Below the pieces are notes generated by a model. That model did not search any database, was not told where the DNA came from, and saw nothing but the letters and a program-made list of their open reading frames with translations. DNA of 64,000 nt, taken from positions 224,001-288,000 of the forward strand of contig CAWEJX010000004.1 in NCBI GenBank assembly GCA_963809485.1, given 5' to 3'. This document shows positions 42,820-58,489 of this stretch, one piece after another. A program made the translations under genes and the position numbers. This stretch comes from an uncultured Acidobacteriota bacterium. Lineage in GTDB: Bacteria > Acidobacteriota > UBA6911. Position 1 is the first letter of the stretch. Each line of letters opens with the position of its first letter.

Positions 42820-44060
42820 GTGGCTCAACCCGACAGCCAAATCGCGCCACCCCTCAAACAAACCGCTGACAGAGCAAAAAGCAGGGCCTGGATGTGGCCT
42901 TTCAGCCTGCTTCTGTTCGTGATCCTGGTAGACTCGATCGACGCCACCTCCTATCGGTCCCGTCATGGCTCAGATCAAAAGCGCGTGGAAAATAAGCAAT
43001 ACAGGTGTCGGCATCTACACAAGCATTTATGGTCTGCTCTCTATCCTCGTGGCTGTGCCCATCGGCGAAGCGGTCAGGCGATGGGGCGTGAAGCGCACCG
43101 TCATGGGCGCGGTGACGATCATTTTCCTTGGAATGATGCTGATGGCAACGGCGGACGCGTTCCCTCAAGGGCTCACGGGCAGAATCTTCGCATCGGCGGG
43201 GATACGGGTGGCAACGGTTGCATCCTGGGCAGGGGCAGCGACGATTGCACCCGCATCGGTCATGACGTCCGCCTGGACCATCATGAATACTGCCAATGCG
43301 GCAGGCGCAATCATCGGGCCGTCGGTTGTTGGAGGCTATGTCGGCTCCAATTTCGGCTGGCAGGCGAGTCTTCTTCACCCTTGCCGGTTTCTCGGTATTC
43401 TGCTTTGTCCTGATCTGGCTGTTCCTGCGCATGCCGTCTGCCAGAACCGCAGCCCCGGATAGCGTTGCGGCGTCGACCGCAACCTCCGGATTCAACGTTT
43501 ACCGGTGCTGGGACATCTACCTGATGGGGCTGATCTTCACCTTCATGATCGGCGGCAGCCAGGTGTCGATCATGAGCTTTGCGCCCCTGGCGATGGCGCA
43601 CCGATGGAATATGGATCCTGCAGGCCATCGGCAATGTGATCGGCCTCTCATATTCGGTAGGATTGCCCGTGATGTTTGTGGCAGGCATTCTCGCCGACAA
43701 GCTTCGCACGCGGAAGAAAATCATGATCGCGGCCGCGAATCCCTATGGCTGCCGGGCTGTTCATGCTCACGTCGCAGGACCAGACGATCTTCATACTGGG
43801 TTTGGTCGGCTATCTCGGCTTCACCTATGCCCCGGGCGCCATGCTTTATGCCTGCGCTCCGGACATGGTACCGAAAGGAACAAGTCTCGGTCCTGTCTAC
43901 GGCCTGCTGGTCGACGATCAGCAACGCCGGCAGCTTTTTCGCGCCCATCATCGTGGGGCGGATACGGGACGCAACAGGCGATTTCAACTCCAGCTTCATC
44001 CTGTTGGGAGTGCTGTGCACGATCAGCTTGCTTCTTTGTCTGAAGCTCCGGGTTCGTTAA
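42820..44060 (+). CDS. MFS transporter, several frameshifts
   Basis: Hydrophobic helices over four ORF pieces; GEAVRRWGVKR and GILADKLRTRK loop motifs; GRIRDATGDF. Confidence 0.75.
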
Positions 44061-45450: not shown

Positions 45451-46992
45451 CTATATGGAAGCTTTGGGCTTCGGCCTGGGGCGATCCAGCCTTTTCTTCA
45501 GCAATTGCCTATACATGCCCAGCTTGACCGCAGCTTTTGTCTGATTGTCATCCGTTTGCTTCAGTGCACTCAAGATGACCCATTTTTCGAGATTATAGGC
45601 CGCAGCTTCCAGCCCCATGCCCCCCTGATCCGTATCCACATCATTGAATCGTATTAAAAAATAGCTTTTTTTCGAATCCTCGATCTTTTTGCGAACCAAT
45701 TCTGCCCGGGTTCTCAGATAATCGCTCACAACGCGCGGAAACATGTTCTCCGCATCGTCCAGATGCTGCATGGCGTGGCGCGGCTTGTCCAAGTCTAATA
45801 ATGTGTCTGCCAGGAGCAGATGGGCGTTGATCTTGAGCTTTTGAGACTTGGCCTTTTTCAGCGCGTCCTCGAAATATTGGCAAGCTTCATCCATTTCATT
45901 ATTCCGGGAATGACATTTGCCCAGGCATATTTTTGCCTCGGCTTGAAGCTCCGGGCTGTTGATCTTCTCCGGGGCCGCCAGATCCAGGGCTTCCATGGCA
46001 TGTTTTGAGGCAATTTTGCAGTTTCTCGAAGCGTCCTCCAGATAGAGCCAGCTTAAAGCCACCAAAACCTCAATTTTTTGCCGCTCGTACCGGTGGGTGC
46101 GACAAATTTCCAAAGCCTGATTGAGATGTGCCTCAGCCTCCTGAAAATTTTTGTCACGGAGAAGCGTCCTGCCGATGTTTGTCAGCGTTCGGGCAATATT
46201 CCGCGAATGATGGGCCGCATTATAGAGCCCCAGCGCGGAGGACAGCGTGTGGAACGACTGAGCGGTCTCACCCTGCGAACGGAGGATCGCGCCCAGACTC
46301 TGCAGGACATTTGCCTTGCTGATGTCGTCTCGGATGTCTTCGAGCAGCTGCTGCGCAGCGAGCAATTTATCCCTTCCTCCGAGCGCGTTCCCCTCTCTCC
46401 AGAGAAAAAATCCTTCAAGGAGGTAGCTGATGCCGATGCGCCAGTTGAGAACCGGCAGATCCCGGGACCGGTTTTTCGACGCGGCAAACCAGCGGAAAAA
46501 ACAGGCGCGGGATTCCTCGCAAGATTTGGTGAGCTCATCCTGTTCAAACAGGCGGCTGAAGCACCGCGCGATGAAATGATGCGCTTCCCCTTCACCCGAA
46601 GGGTCGCGCCTTTCCACGCACGTTTTAAGTATCTGCCGCGCCATGGATATCGCTTTATCGAATTTTCTATTTTCGTAATGATACTCGCACAGGACCAGCT
46701 TCTGTCCCGTTCGAAGACTGCCCATGGACAGAAATTCCGACTCCTTTTTTTGATATTTCTTTATGGCGTTGCCGGCGCTGCTGATGTTTCCACGGTAAAA
46801 ATGCAGCCTCGCGGCGATTGCCGATAATTTGGCTTTGAGCGGCTCATGAATCCGTGAGGCACGGGCATCCTGAAAAACCGCATTGTGATAATCAAATTTC
46901 ATCTGGGCCTGGCGGAAATTGCCGCGCGCCAGATCCTCCTCTATGTCCGCGGCAATAGCCTCCGGGCTCTGTTTGTCGGCCTCTGCCTGCAT
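45451..46992 (-). CDS. TPR-repeat protein with C-terminal Fis-type HTH (putative regulator of the Ubl-like operon)
   Basis: GGAGGA RBS; many TPR-like helices (ANVLQSLGAIL, ARTLTNIGRTL); LEKWVILSALKQTDDNQTKAAVKLGMYRQLL HTH; no AAA+ Walker A or GAFTGA. Confidence 0.8.
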   Translation of the reverse strand: MQAEADKQSPEAIAADIEEDLARGNFRQAQMKFDYHNAVFQDARASRIHEPLKAKLSAIAARLHFYRGNISSAGNAIKKYQKKESEFLSMGSLRTGQKLVLCEYHYENRKFDKAISMARQILKTCVERRDPSGEGEAHHFIARCFSRLFEQDELTKSCEESRACFFRWFAASKNRSRDLPVLNWRIGISYLLEGFFLWREGNALGGRDKLLAAQQLLEDIRDDISKANVLQSLGAILRSQGETAQSFHTLSSALGLYNAAHHSRNIARTLTNIGRTLLRDKNFQEAEAHLNQALEICRTHRYERQKIEVLVALSWLYLEDASRNCKIASKHAMEALDLAAPEKINSPELQAEAKICLGKCHSRNNEMDEACQYFEDALKKAKSQKLKINAHLLLADTLLDLDKPRHAMQHLDDAENMFPRVVSDYLRTRAELVRKKIEDSKKSYFLIRFNDVDTDQGGMGLEAAAYNLEKWVILSALKQTDDNQTKAAVKLGMYRQLLKKRLDRPRPKPKASI

Positions 46993-47089
46993 GGTTATAT
47001 CCTCCCTCGATTTCGACCTCGACGGGGAAAGATCCGGTTCCCGCCCCATCCGGGCCGCGCACCCTCCATGGCACCCAGAATCCTATTAC

Positions 47090-47105
47090 TGCAATATTTA
47101 TTGCA
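47090..47105. promoter_or_regulatory. Palindromic operator candidate 1
   Basis: TGCAATA-TT-TATTGCA perfect inverted repeat in the divergent intergenic region. Confidence 0.6.
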
Positions 47106-47220
47106 TGGCAACCCCAATGGCATTTTTATCCGTGCAGCTGCAACCATTCGCATATTGACAGGCATTCGGTGGCACATTAATCATACGTCAGGACATAAAT
47201 AAGCCAGAATAAATGATGCG

Positions 47221-47236
47221 CGCAACATTTGTTGCA
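47221..47236. promoter_or_regulatory. Palindromic operator candidate 2
   Basis: cGCAACA-TT-TGTTGCa; same spacing and consensus as 47090-47105. Confidence 0.6.
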
Positions 47237-47268
47237 TTTGAGAATACTTCAAAAGGAGGGCCCAAACA

Positions 47269-48879
47269 ATGGAAAAAACCAGGATATCCGGTCTGAACGC
47301 CGGCGAGCTTCGGAACCCATCCGGGCCTTCCAGCCGGCAGGTCTCCCAAAACTTTTGGATACTGCGGGGACTGTCAATCCTGATATTCCTGCTGATTGTC
47401 GGCGGCACCTCTGTCCTTGCCGATCCTGCGTCTGTTCAGGATCTGAAGACTCCGGAGTTGAGTTCCACCGAAGAACAGTTTCGCCAGGTCTACGCCGAAC
47501 TGGAAAGGCAGCGTCAGCTTTTGCACGATCGGACCCGGCTGCCCATAGATGAACAAAGATCGCTGGAAAATCATCTCTCCGAAGTGCGCAGGAGGTTGAA
47601 GAGAATTTCCAGCCAAATGGATGCGCTGCAGAGGCGCGAAAGCCTGCAGGCCGCAGATATTGCATCCTTGACTGCCAGCTTGCGGGATTTTAAGTCTCAG
47701 ATGAGTCTGCAAAACCAAAACGCGGCGACAGCGCAGGAATCAATTCAGGAAAAGACCTCGCTTGTTCTGTATGCCGTTTGGGCACTCGCTGGCGGAATAG
47801 TAGCTCTGGGAGCTGCCTTTCTAGTTTCCCATCATCGCCAGAAGCGGGTGCTCGGAGAAATTATCGGCCACACGAAGAGGCTGTTGGGCATGGGAAAGTC
47901 GAGGCTGCCTGTTCCGGAGGCTGACACAAGGGCTTCGTGGCAGACTCCGGATCCGCAGATCAATTTCGAAGCCCTTTATCCAAAAGAGATTTCGACATTT
48001 AAGCCGCCCGACGACTGGATTGAGGGATTGCGTATCACTCTTACCAGCGAGACGCTCCAGGGGATGGTGGAGGTGGTTGACCGGGCGGAAAGAGAACGCC
48101 CCGGCCTGGAATCCGGCGGGGCTTTGGTAGGGCGGGTAAGGTGCGACGCCGACGGCAATTGGCAGGATGTCTATGTCGAGGGTCTGTTGAGCGCGGGCAA
48201 TGACGTGAAATATGAATGCGCCTATTATGAGGAAGACCGGGCGGCACAGGGATCAGAACTGGAGCGTTTCCGCGCATTGGACACCCGGGTGTCCTACCTC
48301 GGGGATTTTCACCGGCATCCGGGCCGCATGTACTTCCCCAGTGGAGGGGATCATCAAACCGACGCGCGCAATGTCTGTGAGAGTTTTGCAAAAAACTTCA
48401 AGGGCGGATTTGTATACGTGATATTCACTCGCCACGACGGAAGCCGCAAAGGCGGCCTGGTTCAAGACGGATGGAGAGCCGACTTTTATTTTATGCACCG
48501 CGGGCTGCTGGAGTATGTACCTTTCCAGCCGCGCATCGTGGAAGGCGGGGTTCGCCCCAAAGCATGGCAAATCCCTCACCTTCCCAGGGTACGTTCCGAA
48601 CTTGGCGGACTGAGGGCTTTTGCGCAAACAGTCCGGCTTGATCAATTGGCAAAAGACGGCGATGACTACCTGGTGGTCGACGTTGCCGATCCGCGTTGGG
48701 GCGATAGGAGGGTGCTCTTCTTCCTGGCCGATAACTACCCTTACGTTTCCCCAACTGTTTTCCTCGCAAAACACGAAAAAATGACCGCCCTGAACTCCTG
48801 GATACCAGTCTGGAGTCCAAATAGCGGGCTGGTCAACATCCTATATGGCCTAACAGAAAAAGGTGAACTGCCAAGCTGA
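47269..48879 (+). CDS. Membrane-anchored coiled-coil JAB/MPN peptidase with C-terminal Cys-less E2/UEV-like domain
   Basis: AGGAGG RBS; two hydrophobic segments around a coiled coil; ESGG...GDFHRHP...PSGGD JAMM motif; FLADNYPYVSPTVF...WSPNSGLVNIL. Confidence 0.75.
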   Translation: MEKTRISGLNAGELRNPSGPSSRQVSQNFWILRGLSILIFLLIVGGTSVLADPASVQDLKTPELSSTEEQFRQVYAELERQRQLLHDRTRLPIDEQRSLENHLSEVRRRLKRISSQMDALQRRESLQAADIASLTASLRDFKSQMSLQNQNAATAQESIQEKTSLVLYAVWALAGGIVALGAAFLVSHHRQKRVLGEIIGHTKRLLGMGKSRLPVPEADTRASWQTPDPQINFEALYPKEISTFKPPDDWIEGLRITLTSETLQGMVEVVDRAERERPGLESGGALVGRVRCDADGNWQDVYVEGLLSAGNDVKYECAYYEEDRAAQGSELERFRALDTRVSYLGDFHRHPGRMYFPSGGDHQTDARNVCESFAKNFKGGFVYVIFTRHDGSRKGGLVQDGWRADFYFMHRGLLEYVPFQPRIVEGGVRPKAWQIPHLPRVRSELGGLRAFAQTVRLDQLAKDGDDYLVVDVADPRWGDRRVLFFLADNYPYVSPTVFLAKHEKMTALNSWIPVWSPNSGLVNILYGLTEKGELPS

Positions 48880-48894
48880 ACTAATAAGGAGAGA

Positions 48895-49089
48895 ATGATC
48901 ATGCAAGAAAACAAAAGAGCTTTGACTCCAGAAGAGGTTGAAAAATACCGCCGAAAATTGAGGGAGAGCGACATCCGGTACAACACCGATTGTGAGGTTA
49001 TCGATGGGCCGGTTTATGACGTTACACAGGGGCAGGAAACAATCGTCAAACGCGTTCCTTCCGGCGTGGGGCACTGGCTCAAGCTTTAG
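48895..49089 (+). CDS. Small protein, candidate ubiquitin-like modifier
   Basis: AAGGAG RBS; lies in an E1/E2/JAB operon; ends DVTQGQETIVKRVPSGVG-HWLKL. The Ubl assignment is inferred. Confidence 0.6.
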   Translation: MIMQENKRALTPEEVEKYRRKLRESDIRYNTDCEVIDGPVYDVTQGQETIVKRVPSGVGHWLKL

Positions 49090-49349
49090 ACATTCGATCT
49101 TCTGGCGCTCCCGCCCTTGGATATCGATGGATCCCGTTCCAAGGCATGCCAGTCCTTGAATGCACCTGAAATCTCCCAGCGTTGCTGGGAAGGTTATAGA
49201 GTTTGACAGCTCCAGGGTCACCGAACACCGACAGAAGCAGACTAAATCGCTGATGAGCGCTGACCTTGAAGGTGAAGGGCAACGTGCAAGAGTCGCTAAG
49301 GCGCTTCCGAAGCAGGTCGCGTGTTCGCATTCCTGACAGGGTCCATAAG

Positions 49350-50603
49350 ATGAGCAGATGGCTGAAGCAATTGTGCAGCGTGTTTTTTGGAGATGAGGTT
49401 TCTGACGAGAAGGCATCCGTGCATTCATTCGCCAGGAGTGCCGAATTGTCTCAAGTGACCGTTCGCCAGGGCGTCATTGATGCGATTTTTGATCAGGTTG
49501 AGAGACATAAGCGAAAACGCAAGGGCTGCGAGACTGGCGGCGGACTCATCGGTAAGCTTTGTCATTCCCAAAGGGGCGGGTGGCTGATGCAGGTCCAGGG
49601 ACTTCTGGCTCCAGGCCCTTGCGCGGAATACCGCCCCACATATTTCGGAGCAGATCGCACATTTCAGCAGCGATGCCTCCGGAAGCATCACGAGAGGGAT
49701 CCTGAGCTTTCGTTTTTGGGAGACTGGCACCGGCATCCAATCGACATGCGATACCCATCCGCGGGAGACCATTTAACCGACCGGGATAACCTGGCAGAGG
49801 CATTCGATGGGGAGAAGCATGGAATATTTCTATTCCCCATTGTGTCCAGGCATTGTTCCGGCTCCATTCACCATCCTGCACCTTCAATCATGAGCCGGGA
49901 TGGAGTATGGAAGATTGATTTTTACTATCTCACACACGCCCGCAGGAGCTCTTACCAGCCCGCTAATCCCCGGATAGAGGCCGGTCCTTCCGTAGAACTG
50001 AGCTGCCTGGACGAAAGGCCGGAGATTTCCGCGCTGCCAGTGTTCTATTCCGACATGAGGATATCCTGTAACCGCCGGCGTGGCTGGGTCGAGCTTGAAA
50101 TCTCGCGGCCGATATGGGGAAGGGATTCCATTTCCTTTCTTCTTCCTCCCAGCTATCCATTCGATCCGCCGCAGGTCTGGATTACGGGCAACGGCAGGAC
50201 ACGGACCTATGAATCCAGGATGCTGGACCTGTGGAGCGACGCCTATAACCTGCTGAATCTCATATACGAAATTGATCACATGGAAGGAGGCATGAGTCAT
50301 GGCTTGGTACAACCGAAACGAGTCCGGGAAAATGCGATTGGTGCTGGAATGCCAGGCGATGAGGGAAACCGGCTCCCGCTTCGTACTGAAGAAACAGGGG
50401 GAGCAGCTCTATTGGATGGGCCGTCTCAGTCCCATATATTCGGCATTCAATCTGGAGATCCGGTATCCGGACAGTTTTCCGGAGAACGGGCCCCTGGTTT
50501 ACGTGACCAGTCCGGCCCTGCCTCAGGGGACGCCCCATCTTCTGTCCGGCCAGCAACTGTGCATCTTCCATCCGGGCTATGCTCGAAAAAAGGGAGTCTA
50601 TGA
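49350..50603 (+). CDS. Soluble JAB/MPN peptidase with E2/UEV-like domain (homologous part ends ~50290)
   Basis: ETGGGLIG...GDWHRHP...PSAGD; FLLPPSYPFDPPQVW...WSDAYNLLNLIY; the last ~100 codons overlap the E2 gene and are doubtful. Confidence 0.75.
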   Translation: MSRWLKQLCSVFFGDEVSDEKASVHSFARSAELSQVTVRQGVIDAIFDQVERHKRKRKGCETGGGLIGKLCHSQRGGWLMQVQGLLAPGPCAEYRPTYFGADRTFQQRCLRKHHERDPELSFLGDWHRHPIDMRYPSAGDHLTDRDNLAEAFDGEKHGIFLFPIVSRHCSGSIHHPAPSIMSRDGVWKIDFYYLTHARRSSYQPANPRIEAGPSVELSCLDERPEISALPVFYSDMRISCNRRRGWVELEISRPIWGRDSISFLLPPSYPFDPPQVWITGNGRTRTYESRMLDLWSDAYNLLNLIYEIDHMEGGMSHGLVQPKRVRENAIGAGMPGDEGNRLPLRTEETGGAALLDGPSQSHIFGIQSGDPVSGQFSGERAPGLRDQSGPASGDAPSSVRPATVHLPSGLCSKKGSL

Positions 50604-50721
50604 CGCGGCAAGAACAACTGCCGCAACAATTCTCGGCCATGCAATTTCGTGGCTGATCTGCTACGAAATCTGGCAAACGACAGGCCGATGGGAAATGGGC
50701 GAAAGCCCCACGGAAGACTGA
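50299..50721 (+). CDS. Prokaryotic E2/UBC-fold conjugating enzyme
   Basis: AGGAGG RBS; RLVLE N-terminal helix; IRYPDSFP..GP.VYV; PH......LC catalytic Cys; C-terminal SWLICYEIWQTTGRW. Confidence 0.78.
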   Translation: MAWYNRNESGKMRLVLECQAMRETGSRFVLKKQGEQLYWMGRLSPIYSAFNLEIRYPDSFPENGPLVYVTSPALPQGTPHLLSGQQLCIFHPGYARKKGVYDAARTTAATILGHAISWLICYEIWQTTGRWEMGESPTED

Positions 50722-50740
50722 TCCGTGGAAAGGGGGAACA

Positions 50741-51613
50741 ATGAACCTCTATGACAGAATCCGGGAAATCGTCAATCCAGATGTCTTTGACAACAAGCAA
50801 GTCGTAGCTTTCGGTTTGGGCTCGGGTGGAAGCACTACGGTGCTGGAGCTGGCTAAATGCGGCGTCAGCAACTTTGAGCTTGTCGATCCCGATCATCTGG
50901 ATCTCAGCAACATTGTCCGCCATGTGTGCGGATTAAGGGATATAGGGCGGAACAAGGCGGATGCCATGCGAGACGAGATTCTCAACAGGAACCGCAACGC
51001 ATGCGTCGGCGCCCACGCATTTGACATCATGGAGGACTATCAACGCACGTCCGATTTGATACGCGACGCCGACCTCGTGCTTGCCGGGACAGACAATGAG
51101 CCTTCCAAGCACCGTATCAACCTGATCAGCCTGGAAGCCGGCATACCGGTCGTTTACGCCGCCGCCTATCATCGCGCTTTTTGCGGCGAGGTATTCCGGG
51201 TAATTCCGGGGCAAACGCCCTGCTATGCATGCTTTGCTCATGCGCTGGGCCGAACGGAAACAGTCGAGCAAACCGATAGGAGCAAGCTTCGTTACGACGA
51301 TCCGGAAATGGAGCATGCTCTTTCAACCTCCCCGGGACTGGGTATGGATATCGCAGCAATCGCCCTGATTGCCTCAAAGCTGGCGTTAATGACTCTCCTT
51401 GAAGGGACCCAATGGGCGATGCCGCCATTCTCAGGCAACTATATATTCTGGGGCAATCGGCCTCTGAATAACGGCCTGGTGACTCAGTACTGGGAAAGAA
51501 AATTCTGGCAGATCCGCTGCGATCCCCAATGCCTGATTTGTGGCGTGACAGGAAGCAACAGGAATGAGGGTTTGTATGAGGAAATCATGAACGGCCTAGG
51601 TGGAGCAGCATGA
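50741..51613 (+). CDS. ThiF/MoeB-family E1-like adenylyltransferase
   Basis: GLGSGGS, VDPD, SNIVRH, GRNKA, GTDN, Zn ligands CYAC and CLIC. Confidence 0.9.
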   Translation: MNLYDRIREIVNPDVFDNKQVVAFGLGSGGSTTVLELAKCGVSNFELVDPDHLDLSNIVRHVCGLRDIGRNKADAMRDEILNRNRNACVGAHAFDIMEDYQRTSDLIRDADLVLAGTDNEPSKHRINLISLEAGIPVVYAAAYHRAFCGEVFRVIPGQTPCYACFAHALGRTETVEQTDRSKLRYDDPEMEHALSTSPGLGMDIAAIALIASKLALMTLLEGTQWAMPPFSGNYIFWGNRPLNNGLVTQYWERKFWQIRCDPQCLICGVTGSNRNEGLYEEIMNGLGGAA

Positions 51614-52383
51614 TGACAATCCTGCTCGAGGTGAAGCCTTGGGTTTACGCGGCAACGCTGATAGCCGCGATTGTGTCGCTATTCATGTGGTGTCGCCGGC
51701 GCAAGAAGAAGGCACGAAGCGTTTCCCGGCAGGCATCCAACCATGGAAAATGGAAACAGTCAGCTACTGCCACCGAGACCGTTGCGGACAGCATTTCCAG
51801 ACTGCAGACAGCTTTCGGCTTCCGGATCGACGATGATTTCGGAGTTCGGCTAGGTTCCCTGCTAAGCACGGCAAAATATTACAGGCGACTGGGTTTTGTC
51901 GAATTGGCGCATACCCTGGACGATGTGGCGGAAAAAGCGGTTGAGAGCCTCAGAAGCCGCTGTGAGAAAACACTGAAAGAGGTGAAGATCGAATGCGTAG
52001 CATTCCAGCACAATGAGCGGGGCATCGCGGCCGGATTTGTCCTGAATCCGGCTGCGATGTCGGAGCCTTCTCCCGGTACATTTCTGCTTGAAATTGCCGT
52101 CGGCCCCGCAGGCAACAGGGCGGGGGGCCGAACTTCGCGGTATTTTGCAATACGGCTTGAAAAAGGCCGAATCGTGAAATTAAGCGCCGCGGAAACACTT
52201 ATTACCCTACCCGACAGGCCGAATTCCGTCACGGATGAGGTGGGCAATCTGATTGTGACCGCCGTCGATCCATGGGTCTGTGCCATCATTCTAGGCAATC
52301 GGCAACTTGCCCAGGACAACTGCCCGTGTCCGCCTTTTATGGAGGAATACGAGAAAATATTGAGATCCCTATTACGGCCCTAA
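51610..52383 (+). CDS. Hypothetical protein with N-terminal membrane anchor
   Basis: ATGA overlap with the E1 stop; WVYAATLIAAIVSLFMWC followed by RRRKKK. Confidence 0.7.
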   Translation: MMTILLEVKPWVYAATLIAAIVSLFMWCRRRKKKARSVSRQASNHGKWKQSATATETVADSISRLQTAFGFRIDDDFGVRLGSLLSTAKYYRRLGFVELAHTLDDVAEKAVESLRSRCEKTLKEVKIECVAFQHNERGIAAGFVLNPAAMSEPSPGTFLLEIAVGPAGNRAGGRTSRYFAIRLEKGRIVKLSAAETLITLPDRPNSVTDEVGNLIVTAVDPWVCAIILGNRQLAQDNCPCPPFMEEYEKILRSLLRP

Positions 52384-55684: not shown

Positions 55685-55810
55685 AATAGGCATTATTGCC
55701 AAGCCATTCGATACTATTCAATCGCATCCAACTTCGTTACAATAACTCCATCTTCTTATACCGATTCTCAGTGCATCGAACCGGCTGTCGGCGTGGCGGA
55801 GATCTTCCTC

Positions 55811-58489
55811 ATGATCGGCAAAACGCTCGGCCATTATCAAATCACGAATCCCCTCGGCAAGGGCGGCATGGGGGAGGTGTATCAGGCGCGCGACGATCGG
55901 ATCGGGCGGGATGTCGCTGTAAAAGTGCTACCGATGGAGTATGCGGCCGATAAGGACCGTCTCCGCCGCTTCGAGCAGGAAGCCCGGGCGGCCGGCCAGC
56001 TCAACCATCCCAACATCCTGACCGTCTACGACGTGGGTACGCAGGAGGGAGCTCCCTACATCGTCACGGAGTTGCTGCACGGGGAGAGTCTGCAGGAGAT
56101 TGTGCACCCGGGCGGCCTGGGCGTTCGCAAGTCTGTGGATATCGCGGTCCAGATCGCGAATGGCCTGGCTGCGGCCCACGAGAAGGGGATCATTCACCGC
56201 GATCTCAAGCCTGCCAACGTGTTCGTTACGAGGGACGGCTATGTCAAAATCCTGGACTTCGGAATCGCGAAACTGGCATCGCCGAGAAGCGTCCATGGAT
56301 CGGAAGAAACCACCCTGATGAACGCAACAACTGAGGCCGGCAAGCTGCTCGGCACCGTAGGATATGTCTCCCCGGAGCAGCTGCGCGGCCAGCCTGTGGA
56401 CCACCGGACAGACATTTTCTCCTTGGGGTGCGTGCTGTACGAAATGCTGGCAGGACAACGGGCATTCCAGGGACCGACGGCGGCAGACACCGTGACGGCG
56501 ATCCTCTCGAAAGACCCGGCGCCGCTTTCGGCTCCGGGATTGGAAATTCCGCCGGCGCTGCAGGCCATAGTGAGCCAGTGCCTGGAGAAATCCCCGGAAG
56601 ACCGCTTTTCCAGCGCCCACGACGTGGCGCTGGCGCTGCGGCTTTTCCCGGGGCAGACGGAAATGATCGGGCCGCAGCCGGGAGCGGGGAGGCCTCCGAT
56701 GAGCCTGCGGAGGCGGCTGGCTGTGGCGGGTTTGGCAGTGCTGCTCCTCGTCGCCGCCATTATCGCCGTTTGGAAGCTGCTCTCACGGCCTCCCACACAG
56801 CGTCAGGAAGCGGTACAGGGGCAATCGGTCAGGGTCGTCGTTCTTCCATTTGAAAACCTCGGTGCCGCCGAAGATGCATACTTTGCCGCAGGCATGACTG
56901 AGGAGATCACCAGCCGGCTCGCCAATGTACAGGGATTGGGTGTGATCTCGCGGACCTCTGCCATCGGATACGACGGGAGGGGGAAAACCGTTAAGCAGAT
57001 CGGCCGCGACCTCGGTGTCGATTTTGTGCTTGAGGGCAGCGTGCGTTGGGAGCGCGCTCCCGGCCGGGAAAGCCGCGTGCGCATCACCCCGCAGCTCATC
57101 CGAGCCGCCGACGACACCCACATCTGGTCCGATCGATACGAAAGGGTGCTCGCAGACGTGTTCGCCATCCAGTCTGAGGTGGCGGAAAACGCCGTCAAGG
57201 CGATGGGCGTCGCGCTCCTGCCCAATGAGCGGGCTGCACTGAAAGAGGTCTCAACGCAGGACCTGGAGGCCTACCAGCTCTACCTTCGCGGCCGCGAACT
57301 GGAAAGCCGCGGTGTGGTCAGAAAAGATATCGATGGTGCACTTCAGATGTACCAGGATGCGGTCCATCGCGATCCACAATTTGCGCAGGCCCTTGCGGGA
57401 ATGGCCAGGACCAACCTGGCGATGTACTGGGAGTACTTCGACCGGAGCCGGGAGCGGCTTGTCAAGGCCAGGGAAGCAGCGGAACTGGCCGTCCAACTCC
57501 GCCCGGACCTCGCGGAGGCCCAAACCGCTCTGGGGCTCTATTACTACTGGGGAAAATTGAACTATCCGAAGGCCCTGGATTCGTTCGCGGCGGCTTTGCG
57601 GTCTCAGCCCAACAACTCCGATGCACTTGCCGGAATCGGCTTTGTCCTGCGCCGCCAGGGACGATGGGTAGAAGCGATGGAGAAGTTCAGCACTGTGGCG
57701 GACCTGGATCCCAAAAACGCAGCCCGGATCTTTGACGTCGGTCTCACCAATGAACTCGCCGGCCGCTACGACGACGCGGATCGTGCCTTTATCCGGACGC
57801 TTTCCTTGAATCCGCTCTACGCTGGAGCGTATGCAGAACGAGCATGGCAACAGCTCGTGTGGCGTGGCGACACGGACAAGGCTCAGGCTGTTCTGGACGA
57901 GGCTGCCCGTGTTGCCGGCCTTACGGACGATGTTGGCTATATTGCGGAGATACAACTGCGGGTTTCATTGTGCCGCCGGGACTATTCCGGTGCGCTGCGT
58001 CGGCTTGAGGCTGAAACACGGCCCGCAATCGACAACCAGGACGGATTCTGGCCCATCCCCTTGCTCCGCGGAAATGTATATCGGTTGGCCGGTCAGCCCA
58101 GTCTCGCGCAAGACTCGTACGAGGCTGCGCGCCTGGAACTCGAGAAAAAAGTCCGGCAGACTCCTGACGATGACCGGTTCCGCAGCTCGCTCGGCATAGC
58201 CTGCGCAGGCCTCGGCCGGCGCGAAGAAGCCGTGCGCGAGGCGCGCCTTGCCTGCGACCTCATGCCGGCCTCGAAGGACGCCTTGCGGGCCATCTTTCGC
58301 CTTTGGGAACTGGCCGTCGTCTTGGCAATAGCGGACCGGCCGGCCGAAGCGATCGTCACATTGGACGAATTGCTTGCGCGAAGCGGTTGGTGGACGCCTC
58401 AGGTGCTCCGGCTGGATCCTACATGGGACCCGCTGCGGCCGGATCCGCGATTCCAGGCATTGCTCGTCAAGTACGAGGTTAAACAATAA
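55811..58489 (+). CDS. Hanks-type Ser/Thr protein kinase with TM, TolB-N-like domain and TPRs
   Basis: LGKGGMGEVY, VAVK, HRDLKPAN, DFG, YVSPEQ; TM helix; VLPFENL...GMTEEI; TPRs; DPLRPDPRFQALL. Confidence 0.92.
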   Translation: MIGKTLGHYQITNPLGKGGMGEVYQARDDRIGRDVAVKVLPMEYAADKDRLRRFEQEARAAGQLNHPNILTVYDVGTQEGAPYIVTELLHGESLQEIVHPGGLGVRKSVDIAVQIANGLAAAHEKGIIHRDLKPANVFVTRDGYVKILDFGIAKLASPRSVHGSEETTLMNATTEAGKLLGTVGYVSPEQLRGQPVDHRTDIFSLGCVLYEMLAGQRAFQGPTAADTVTAILSKDPAPLSAPGLEIPPALQAIVSQCLEKSPEDRFSSAHDVALALRLFPGQTEMIGPQPGAGRPPMSLRRRLAVAGLAVLLLVAAIIAVWKLLSRPPTQRQEAVQGQSVRVVVLPFENLGAAEDAYFAAGMTEEITSRLANVQGLGVISRTSAIGYDGRGKTVKQIGRDLGVDFVLEGSVRWERAPGRESRVRITPQLIRAADDTHIWSDRYERVLADVFAIQSEVAENAVKAMGVALLPNERAALKEVSTQDLEAYQLYLRGRELESRGVVRKDIDGALQMYQDAVHRDPQFAQALAGMARTNLAMYWEYFDRSRERLVKAREAAELAVQLRPDLAEAQTALGLYYYWGKLNYPKALDSFAAALRSQPNNSDALAGIGFVLRRQGRWVEAMEKFSTVADLDPKNAARIFDVGLTNELAGRYDDADRAFIRTLSLNPLYAGAYAERAWQQLVWRGDTDKAQAVLDEAARVAGLTDDVGYIAEIQLRVSLCRRDYSGALRRLEAETRPAIDNQDGFWPIPLLRGNVYRLAGQPSLAQDSYEAARLELEKKVRQTPDDDRFRSSLGIACAGLGRREEAVREARLACDLMPASKDALRAIFRLWELAVVLAIADRPAEAIVTLDELLARSGWWTPQVLRLDPTWDPLRPDPRFQALLVKYEVKQ

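Follow-up and report, generated by a model that had tools for sequence, protein, structure and literature searches.

Bacterial operons that combine an E1 adenylating enzyme, an E2 and a JAB-type isopeptidase are ancestors or cousins of eukaryotic ubiquitination, and the families studied so far are type II CBASS (an antiphage system that signals through cyclic oligonucleotides), Bil, Bub and 6A-MBL. Here we analyse a locus at positions 45451 to 52383 of a 64,000 nucleotide (nt) stretch from an uncultured Acidobacteriota bacterium (GenBank assembly GCA_963809485.1, contig CAWEJX010000004.1, positions 224,001 to 288,000), which is referred to in full as the window. An original prediction, made from the letters of the window, described six co-oriented genes and one divergent gene, and the list of open reading frames (ORFs) matches its coordinates throughout (Table 1). 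The core of the locus consists of a membrane-anchored protein in which a JAB domain is joined to an apparently inactive, UEV-like E2 fold (JAB-UEV), a 64 amino acid (aa) mini-protein, an E2 and an E1. The best reading is that the locus belongs to a family of E1-E2-isopeptidase conjugation systems that is rare among bacteria and has had no name so far. The architecture is not described in the literature that we searched; Burroughs et al. (2008, 2009) and supplementary operon catalogues were outside the scope of that search and might list it, which leaves a prior listing possible.

The locus adds to the studied families one with three features that they lack. One is the fusion of what would be a reader and an eraser, an isopeptidase joined to a UEV-like inactive E2 fold; eukaryotic UEV domains (Tsg101, Mms2) read ubiquitin. 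Another is the membrane anchor, with a segment predicted to face outward, which points to a link between conjugation and events at the envelope. The last is an unusual candidate tag, conserved over about 60 residues and giving no sign of a ubiquitin fold in family and PDB searches.

The E1, E2 and JAB proteins are homologous to those of type II CBASS, and CBASS-derived PADLOC models are their best matches. Among the structural matches of the JAB domain Cap3 ranks first, and in the PDB the E2 has a match to its counterpart from an E2-CBASS. In the accounts of type II CBASS available to us, the module performs reversible conjugation and the conjugated moiety is not a ubiquitin-like protein (Ubl). 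However, Cap2 is a fused E2-E1 protein in type II CBASS, whereas E2 and E1 are separate ORFs with their own starts here and likewise in six related loci. The locus also encodes no CD-NTase and no nucleotide-activated effector, and its JAB domain is fused to an inactive E2 fold, membrane-anchored and accompanied by the conserved mini-protein. No cyclase family was found in the seven proteins or in 13 flanking ORFs, and PF18144 has no match in the genome, which is 95.67% complete. The sole match to a PADLOC 'Cyclase' model falls in the part at its C-terminus that is E2-like. No ThiS/MoaD-type neighbour turned up either when the flanks were scanned with Pfam, and the original exclusion of both CBASS and cofactor sulfur transfer holds.

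In 6A-MBL, an anti-phage system, a fused E2-E1-JAB protein is paired with a protein of the metallo-beta-lactamase (MBL) fold. The resemblance to it is a weak match of the E1 and JAB proteins to NCBIfam NF058523. The scores are 58.5, 29.1 and 20.1 against a cut-off of 320, and there are three separate genes in place of a triple fusion. No MBL-fold gene was found among the operon proteins and the flanking ORFs scanned, small unscanned ORFs apart.

Bil systems of types I and II also carry tag, E2, JAB and E1 on separate genes, and BilC is among the structural matches of the JAB domain. In BilA, according to the part of the source available to us, a conserved Gly is followed by up to nine non-conserved residues (10.1101/2023.09.26.559546), and the variable tail that follows a conserved C-terminal motif in the mini-protein parallels this. 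The Bil E1 is described as multidomain, with inactive and active adenylation domains and a CYS domain (IAD-AAD-CYS), whereas the E1 here is a single adenylation domain of 290 aa. Additionally, the E2 is of the CBASS type and not CEHH, and the JAB protein carries the UEV-like domain and the membrane anchor. Family and PDB searches detected no beta-grasp Ubl in the 64 aa protein, and Prok_Ub (PF14454) has no match in the genome.

Bub systems (formerly 6E/DUF6527) share with the locus an E2-fold domain without catalytic Cys and possibly an E1 that lacks a catalytic Cys, and BubCD matches the JAB domain. The locus has no poly-Ubl, Ubl-E2 or E2-E1 fusion; its only fusions are of JAB with the inactive E2 fold. 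The Cys-less E2 of Bub is catalytic through Ser in the accounts available to us, whereas in the domain here Ser is not conserved, and the locus has a Cys-E2 of its own as well. DUF6527 (PF20137), the family of the BubE protease, matches nothing in the genome or among the proteins of the operon. Five operon types, 6a-6e, were distinguished by Iyer et al. (2006; PMC1779556), and as far as the available part of that paper describes them none includes a JAB-inactive-E2 fusion, anchoring in the membrane or a small protein other than a Ubl. The claim that no described system matches the locus gene for gene therefore holds against CBASS, 6A-MBL, Bil and Bub.

A split E2/E1/JAB/MBL cluster is present in another genome of the window's phylum (G206; loci L004/L017), with an E1 33% identical to that of the window. 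At 5262-9793 of L017 a 78 aa ORF and an E2 come first, then a second E2 that has an antitoxin-like N-terminus joined to it, and an E1, followed by a 306 aa JAB protein, a ComEC/MBL-fold protein and a 253 aa transmembrane (TM) protein. The cluster adjoins a 1530 aa gene on the opposite strand that by eye resembles a helicase-methylase. The cluster is reminiscent of an unfused 6A-MBL-like system, but its NCBIfam scores lie far below the cut-offs (48.8 and 44.3 against 320, and 38.5 against 220).

Enzymes and mini-protein of the locus

Both JAB-UEV proteins exceed the Prok-JAB cut-off of 25 bits in Pfam (34.0 bits, 2.9e-8, for the 536 aa protein and 25.3 bits for the 417 aa protein), and the PADLOC JAB model matches the second at 1.8e-10. 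They are paralogues (31% identity, match at 1.9e-36), as was originally proposed, and in the alignment the JAMM motif Glu...HxH(7)SxxD is intact in both. In 71 family sequences H127 and H129 do not vary, and conservation of E61, S137 and D140 is 90% or higher. The NCBIfam Cap3 model gives 23.3 bits against a cut-off of 200, so the JAB protein is a Cap3 homologue and not an equivalog. Residues 1-316 of the second paralogue were modelled with AlphaFold2 from an alignment of the 71 family sequences, the first paralogue being represented through its 31% identity. The model has a predicted local distance difference test score (pLDDT) of 88.8 and a predicted template modelling score (pTM) of 0.80. 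In an exhaustive structural comparison its residues 31-208 match Cap3 best (9ild_A; Z 15.8, root-mean-square deviation (rmsd) 2.6, 142 aligned). They also match Rpn11-type and BRCC36 MPN domains, BilC (8tyy_B, Z 13.1) and BubCD (9ea5_A, Z 10.1). Foldseek matches to the same model are confined to the JAB part (MPN fold).

Residues 218-316 of the model match Ube2W (8a58_A; Z 10.7, rmsd 2.5, 96 aligned) and the Tsg101 UEV domain (2f0r_A; Z 10.7, rmsd 2.4, 97 aligned). UbcH5, Ubc9 and the Ubc13-Mms2 entry follow at Z 9.4-10.3 and the Knl1 RWD domain at Z 9.3. When the C-terminal domain was compared by hhalign with the alignment of the system's own E2 (E 2.2e-4, probability 45%), the match took in helix 1 together with the beta-meander and the YPxxPP flap. 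The JAB-UEV family keeps both the Pro of this flap and the Trp that E2s have in their 'WSP' position. In the segment from the PPxV flap to the conserved Trp, where a catalytic Cys would be expected, Cys occurs in at most 2 of 68 sequences in any one column and only eight of the 68 have any Cys. The best Ser column in the same segment reaches 18 of 68. Because the domain matches E2 folds and has no conserved Cys or Ser column, we assign it to a UEV/RWD-like inactive E2 fold. The model and alignments thus indicate that the C-terminal domains of the JAB proteins are E2/UEV folds without the catalytic Cys, as the original prediction of JAB-pseudo-E2 fusions had it. The domain was also considered as a Ser-dependent E2 like that of Bub, and this was rejected because no Ser is conserved.

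The 536 aa protein has hydrophobic segments at residues 25-56 and 162-188 on either side of a coiled-coil-like stretch of about 110 aa, and basic residues follow the second segment. By the positive-inside rule these basic residues suggest that the JAB-UEV part is cytoplasmic; hydropathy and this rule together predict a coiled coil outside and the JAB-UEV part inside. Hydropathy, the Prok-JAB match and the model of the paralogue bear out the TM, coiled-coil, JAB and E2-like makeup first proposed for this gene. N- or C-terminal hydrophobic segments are common among members of the JAB-UEV family. When a profile built from both paralogues was run against 1.84 billion representatives, 512 proteins had E<=1e-3, and 64 had E<=1e-10. 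In 27 of the 150 listed, one and the same match reaches from the JAB part to profile position 298 or further.

The frame of the second JAB-UEV protein has no stop before the E2 gene. It stays open to 50603 and overlaps E2 by 305 nt in another frame, which would add about 100 low-complexity residues, rich in Gly, Pro, Ser and Arg, beyond the folded domain. The 417 aa form recurs in two metagenomic relatives (77% identity), so the overlap is not a sequencing slip. The predicted JAB and E2-like domains of this gene are thus present, and its predicted separate end before E2 is not. A TTG at 49266 was considered as the start and rejected, as relative L001 has an in-frame TAA there. The non-coding sequence at 49230-49349, immediately upstream of the second JAB-UEV start, shares about 80% identity with L001, the same level of conservation as in the coding sequence behind it, and could hold an internal promoter or regulatory site. 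L001 is a 1053 nt metagenome contig whose relative of the second JAB-UEV protein (P0003) is 77% identical to that of the window over 157 residues and then diverges fully, which suggests a chimeric assembly or a rearranged copy.

The 140 aa protein matches the PADLOC E2 model PDLC00876 (2.3e-20) and the E2 of E2-CBASS in the PDB (8hsb_B, 2.6e-4); no Pfam family matches it at E<=0.1. T78, P79, H80, L82 and C88 are invariant in all six E2s of the system. From its sequence, this protein is an E2 with a conserved Cys and a preceding His, the residues that the original prediction had read as a PH..LC motif.

The E1 scores 114.4 bits with Pfam ThiF (PF00899; 5.9e-33, residues 18-221, cut-off 28.1), and its assignment as ThiF-type is confirmed. 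It also matches the CBASS-derived PADLOC E1-E2 model at 4.7e-32. In the PDB it matches MoeB (1.3e-12), PaaA (1.2e-11) and MccB (2e-11), as well as the SUMO E1 and Cap2. The residues G25/G27-G30, D118, C161/C164 and C264/C267 are invariant in all six E1s, and the E1 of the window is 34-36% identical to those of the other loci. The NCBIfam equivalog models for ThiF, MoeB and UbaA all place the protein far below their cut-offs, and it is therefore not one of these cofactor enzymes.

The mini-protein has no match in Pfam, PADLOC, NCBIfam or PHROG. With a profile built from the six small ORFs, 25 of 298 candidate proteins scored E<=0.01, and all 25 are of 45-70 aa. The conserved parts are an N-terminal helix-like motif, a central Gly/Thr-rich block and a C-terminal block that ends in an invariant His and an aromatic residue (Tyr in 22, Trp in two and Phe in two of 26 sequences). 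The variable tail after this pair has two residues in 21 of the 26 sequences, three in two, and four, 11 and none in one each. Across the Planctomycetota loci described below the mini-protein is 55-63% identical, in comparison with 52-68% for E2 and 51-70% for E1. One family member, P0179, is 94% identical to the mini-protein of the window, whereas the neighbouring JAB-UEV and TM257 proteins are 77% identical to their relatives, and this argues that the small protein is under selection. P0179 and the 77%-identical JAB-UEV relative are each listed with a longest contig of 8539 nt, which suggests that they share one contig.

Searched against the PDB, the mini-protein profile gave summed matches to WD40 and beta-trefoil repeat proteins and no significant single stretch. 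These matches, and weak Pfam SGS matches in 10 of 26 members (best 0.0095), were treated as composition or repeat artefacts. Predicted complexes of two E1 copies with the mini-protein scored 0.01, 0.60 and 0.74 in separate runs and 0.54 in one control, which gives no answer either way. A known parallel is Pup of the actinobacteria, also a modifier of about 64 aa without a ubiquitin fold. Pup is ligated by PafA, a glutamine-synthetase-like enzyme, and not by an E1/E2 pair. We know of no sequence relation between Pup and the mini-protein.

A four-gene core in fixed order in three phyla

Neither a single JAB-UEV protein nor a close-clade alignment found a locus in genome contigs, and a metagenome scan found one contig only, L001. 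A profile of the JAB-UEV subfamily, however, found five loci in species-representative genomes, one in a Hydrogenedentes and four in Planctomycetota metagenome-assembled genomes. In tblastn searches the JAB-UEV gene is directly followed by an E2 (32-35% identity to that of the window) and then an E1 (33-37%) in all five loci, and all five have an ORF of 63-68 aa between JAB-UEV and E2, like the 64 aa ORF of the window. Searching with only the small protein recovered three of these five loci and turned up a sixth, which carries the whole cassette. The membrane JAB-UEV protein, mini-protein, E2 and E1 therefore occur in fixed order across Acidobacteriota, Planctomycetota and Hydrogenedentes. With the same gene order in six other loci from two other phyla, the cluster is more than a chance arrangement.

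Four of the loci (L010, L011, L013 and L020) have a seven-gene cassette by tblastn, and in L009 (a 4.7 kb contig) and L012 the core is present. The order of this cassette is a 290 aa TM/coiled-coil protein, a TM protein of about 205 aa, TM-JAB-UEV, small protein, E2, E1 and a signal-peptide/TPR (tetratricopeptide repeat) protein. No protein of the Planctomycetota cassette exceeds a cut-off in NCBIfam release 20. The position after E1 is taken by TM257 in the window and by the unrelated signal-peptide/TPR protein in the other loci. For the second JAB-UEV protein, TM257 and the divergent TPR-HTH (helix-turn-helix) gene, the searches yielded counterparts in relatives of 71-77% identity at most, or none elsewhere. 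The gene order of the original prediction is thus conserved for the four-gene core, and for these three genes it is confined to the close clade.

The system is rare. The subfamily profile found it in three of 401 sampled genomes of the phylum of L011, two of which were already known. Among the other 400 genomes of the window's own phylum, the JAB-UEV protein of the window gave matches in five, all to the JAB part only. The system was absent from the three genomes of the same genus and the six of the same family that were searched.

Two closely related Planctomycetota loci carry, after the cassette, genes for a membrane metallopeptidase of M50B-like type and for an AAA ATPase (L011, 12436-14285; L013, 12462-14311). 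Neither of the two adjoins the cassette of any other locus; all that L020 shows is a distant match to AAA, located elsewhere and on the other strand.

Possible mechanism and competing explanations

From the gene content we predict, with about even confidence, a new E1/E2 conjugation family in which the mini-protein is the tag and the transmembrane JAB-UEV protein is a deconjugase or sensor. The JAB domain would trim the variable tail after the His-aromatic motif, or the tail would be tolerated, and the E1 would adenylate the C-terminus of the tag. The tag would then pass to Cys88 of the E2, directly or via a non-invariant cysteine of the E1, and from there to amino groups of targets. The UEV-like domain may hold the tag or the E2 non-covalently and present conjugates to the adjoining JAMM site, such that the membrane JAB-UEV protein would reverse or gate conjugation. 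Its outward coiled-coil segment may couple this activity to an envelope signal, for example phage attack or envelope stress. In the clade of the window the second, soluble JAB-UEV protein and TM257, a candidate target or effector, would have been added, with the TPR/HTH protein as a possible regulator.

A more specific version is that a transmembrane JAB-UEV receptor switches, on an outside signal, an E1/E2 cascade whose tag of about 60 aa does not have the ubiquitin fold. We regard this as possible but on balance doubtful, and equally tentative is the part of it in which the tag is activated at or near the invariant His-aromatic C-terminal motif. If it were true, this would be the first E1-E2 pathway without a beta-grasp tag and the first wired to an envelope sensor. 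The role of the system may lie in envelope sensing or anti-phage defence.

Several observations weigh against the prediction of a tag-conjugating system. The mini-protein has no Gly-Gly end, and family and PDB profile searches detect no similarity to any Ubl. A beta-grasp fold seems unlikely for a protein of about 60 aa with an N-terminal helix motif. Of the mini-Ubl originally predicted, the conserved gene stands, with its 25-member family, and the Ubl identity is putative. That the tail has exactly two residues in 21 of 26 members could mean that it is functional and not removed. The E1 has no invariant Cys outside its two CxxC pairs, Cys148 being present in five of six sequences. Nor is an effector domain recognisable among the system proteins, and E1 is followed by TM257 in the window but by a signal/TPR protein in the other loci. 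The topology of the 536 aa protein is a prediction from hydropathy and the positive-inside rule. As to defence, no copy was found in viral contigs, and the genes that flank the locus are ordinary metabolic ones and do not form a defence island. The sample is also small, at seven genomic loci and short metagenome contigs.

The lack of a Ubl-like end on the mini-protein would fit CBASS-like self-conjugation, in which E1 and E2 activate and attach the C-terminus of a larger system protein and the mini-protein, bound to the E1 or to the UEV-like domain, serves as adaptor, inhibitor or chaperone. The substrate would be the protein after E1 or a JAB-UEV protein, as Cap2 acts on the CD-NTase. The E1, E2 and JAB proteins are nearest to CBASS-type models, including the match of JAB to Cap3 at Z 15.8 and of the E2 to 8hsb_B, and in the available accounts the moiety of type II CBASS is likewise not a Ubl. 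However, the protein after E1 differs between subtypes while the mini-protein is conserved, the C-terminus of TM257 has neither a variable tail nor a small terminal residue, and the profile search found no CD-NTase-like protein in the genome. We consider self-conjugation unlikely, though a serious competitor to the mini-protein as tag. The alternatives differ in what they imply: a conjugated mini-protein would mean that E1-E2 chemistry is not tied to beta-grasp tags, and a mini-protein that is not conjugated would make this the second example after CBASS of E1/E2 acting on a non-Ubl. Either way, the system has a compact four-gene core.

A precursor-sized ORF beside an adenylating enzyme, a peptidase and membrane proteins is also reminiscent of ribosomally synthesized and post-translationally modified peptides (RiPPs). 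The E1-like enzyme would then adenylate the C-terminus of the mini-protein for modification, as MccB and PaaA do, the JAB protein would be a processing peptidase and the role of the membrane proteins would be to export the product or to sense it. The matches of the E1 to MccB and PaaA are about as good as that to MoeB. We think this improbable: a separate E2 with invariant His and Cys is present, and we know of no role for such an E2 in RiPP pathways. The mini-protein is conserved over its full length across phyla, with a variable end of only two residues and no split into leader and hypervariable core, and family scans of the operon and cassette proteins found no transporter domain. Finally, a decayed remnant or chance cluster without joint function could account for the absence of the system from related genomes, and the frame of the second JAB-UEV protein that runs into E2 could look like a lost stop. 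Against this, all catalytic motifs are intact, gene order is kept across three phyla, two independent metagenome sequences have the 417 aa overlapping form, and the genes are tightly spaced with ATGA coupling. This makes a remnant highly improbable, and we retain conjugation of the mini-protein as the preferred reading.

Accessory genes, signals and surroundings

TM257, the membrane protein encoded after E1, has one hydrophobic N-terminal segment (residues 4-28) and two relatives only (77% and 71% identity). It has no family in Pfam, PADLOC or NCBIfam and no usable match in the ESM Atlas; there is one weak match in PHROG (0.0015). We regard it as a clade-specific partner and a possible target or effector. 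Its start overlaps the stop of E1 by 4 nt, which confirms the ATGA coupling noted earlier.

The divergent gene matches TPR_12 at 1.5e-19 and HTH_8 at 3.6e-4, the latter at 20.7 bits against a Pfam cut-off of 22, and its C-terminus has weak Fis/NtrC matches in NCBIfam. No relative was found in the other six loci by tblastn. The TPR part of the predicted TPR-Fis regulator is well founded, and its HTH part is below the cut-off. The protein may regulate the operon.

Table 1. Genes of the locus, with positions in the window
Feature	Position	Strand	Length	Remarks
Divergent TPR protein with weak C-terminal Fis-type HTH	45451..47049	-	532 aa	Candidate regulator
Membrane-anchored JAB-UEV fusion	47269..48879	+	536 aa	JAMM isopeptidase domain; predicted inactive E2 (UEV-like) domain
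Conserved mini-protein	48895..49089	+	64 aa	Candidate tag/modifier
Second, soluble JAB-UEV fusion	49350..50603	+	417 aa	ATG start; folded part residues 1-316 (to about 50297)
Catalytic-type E2	50299..50721	+	140 aa	His80 and Cys88
Single-domain ThiF/MoeB-type E1 adenylating enzyme	50741..51613	+	290 aa	GxGSGG; two CxxC pairs
N-terminally anchored membrane protein TM257, family unassigned	51610..52383	+	257 aa	ATGA overlap with E1

A Shine-Dalgarno-like GGAGG precedes the first gene of the operon (47269), the small ORF and the E2 gene. In a promoter and terminator scan of the locus, counts were not above those of shuffled sequences. A TTGACA-18-AATCAT site lies at 47155-47184, upstream of the first gene, and carries no evidential weight given these counts.

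The host belongs to the Acidobacteriota, and its MetRS shares 95% identity with the enzyme of an uncultured Acidobacteriota metagenome-assembled genome. Upstream of the locus, the overlapping ORFs at 42965-43462 and 43296-44060 match different parts of the MFS_1 profile and look like one transporter gene (42965-44060) split by a frameshift or an assembly error. On the same strand as the operon and 3.4 kb downstream of it, 55793-58489 encodes an 898 aa Ser/Thr protein kinase with C-terminal TPR repeats.

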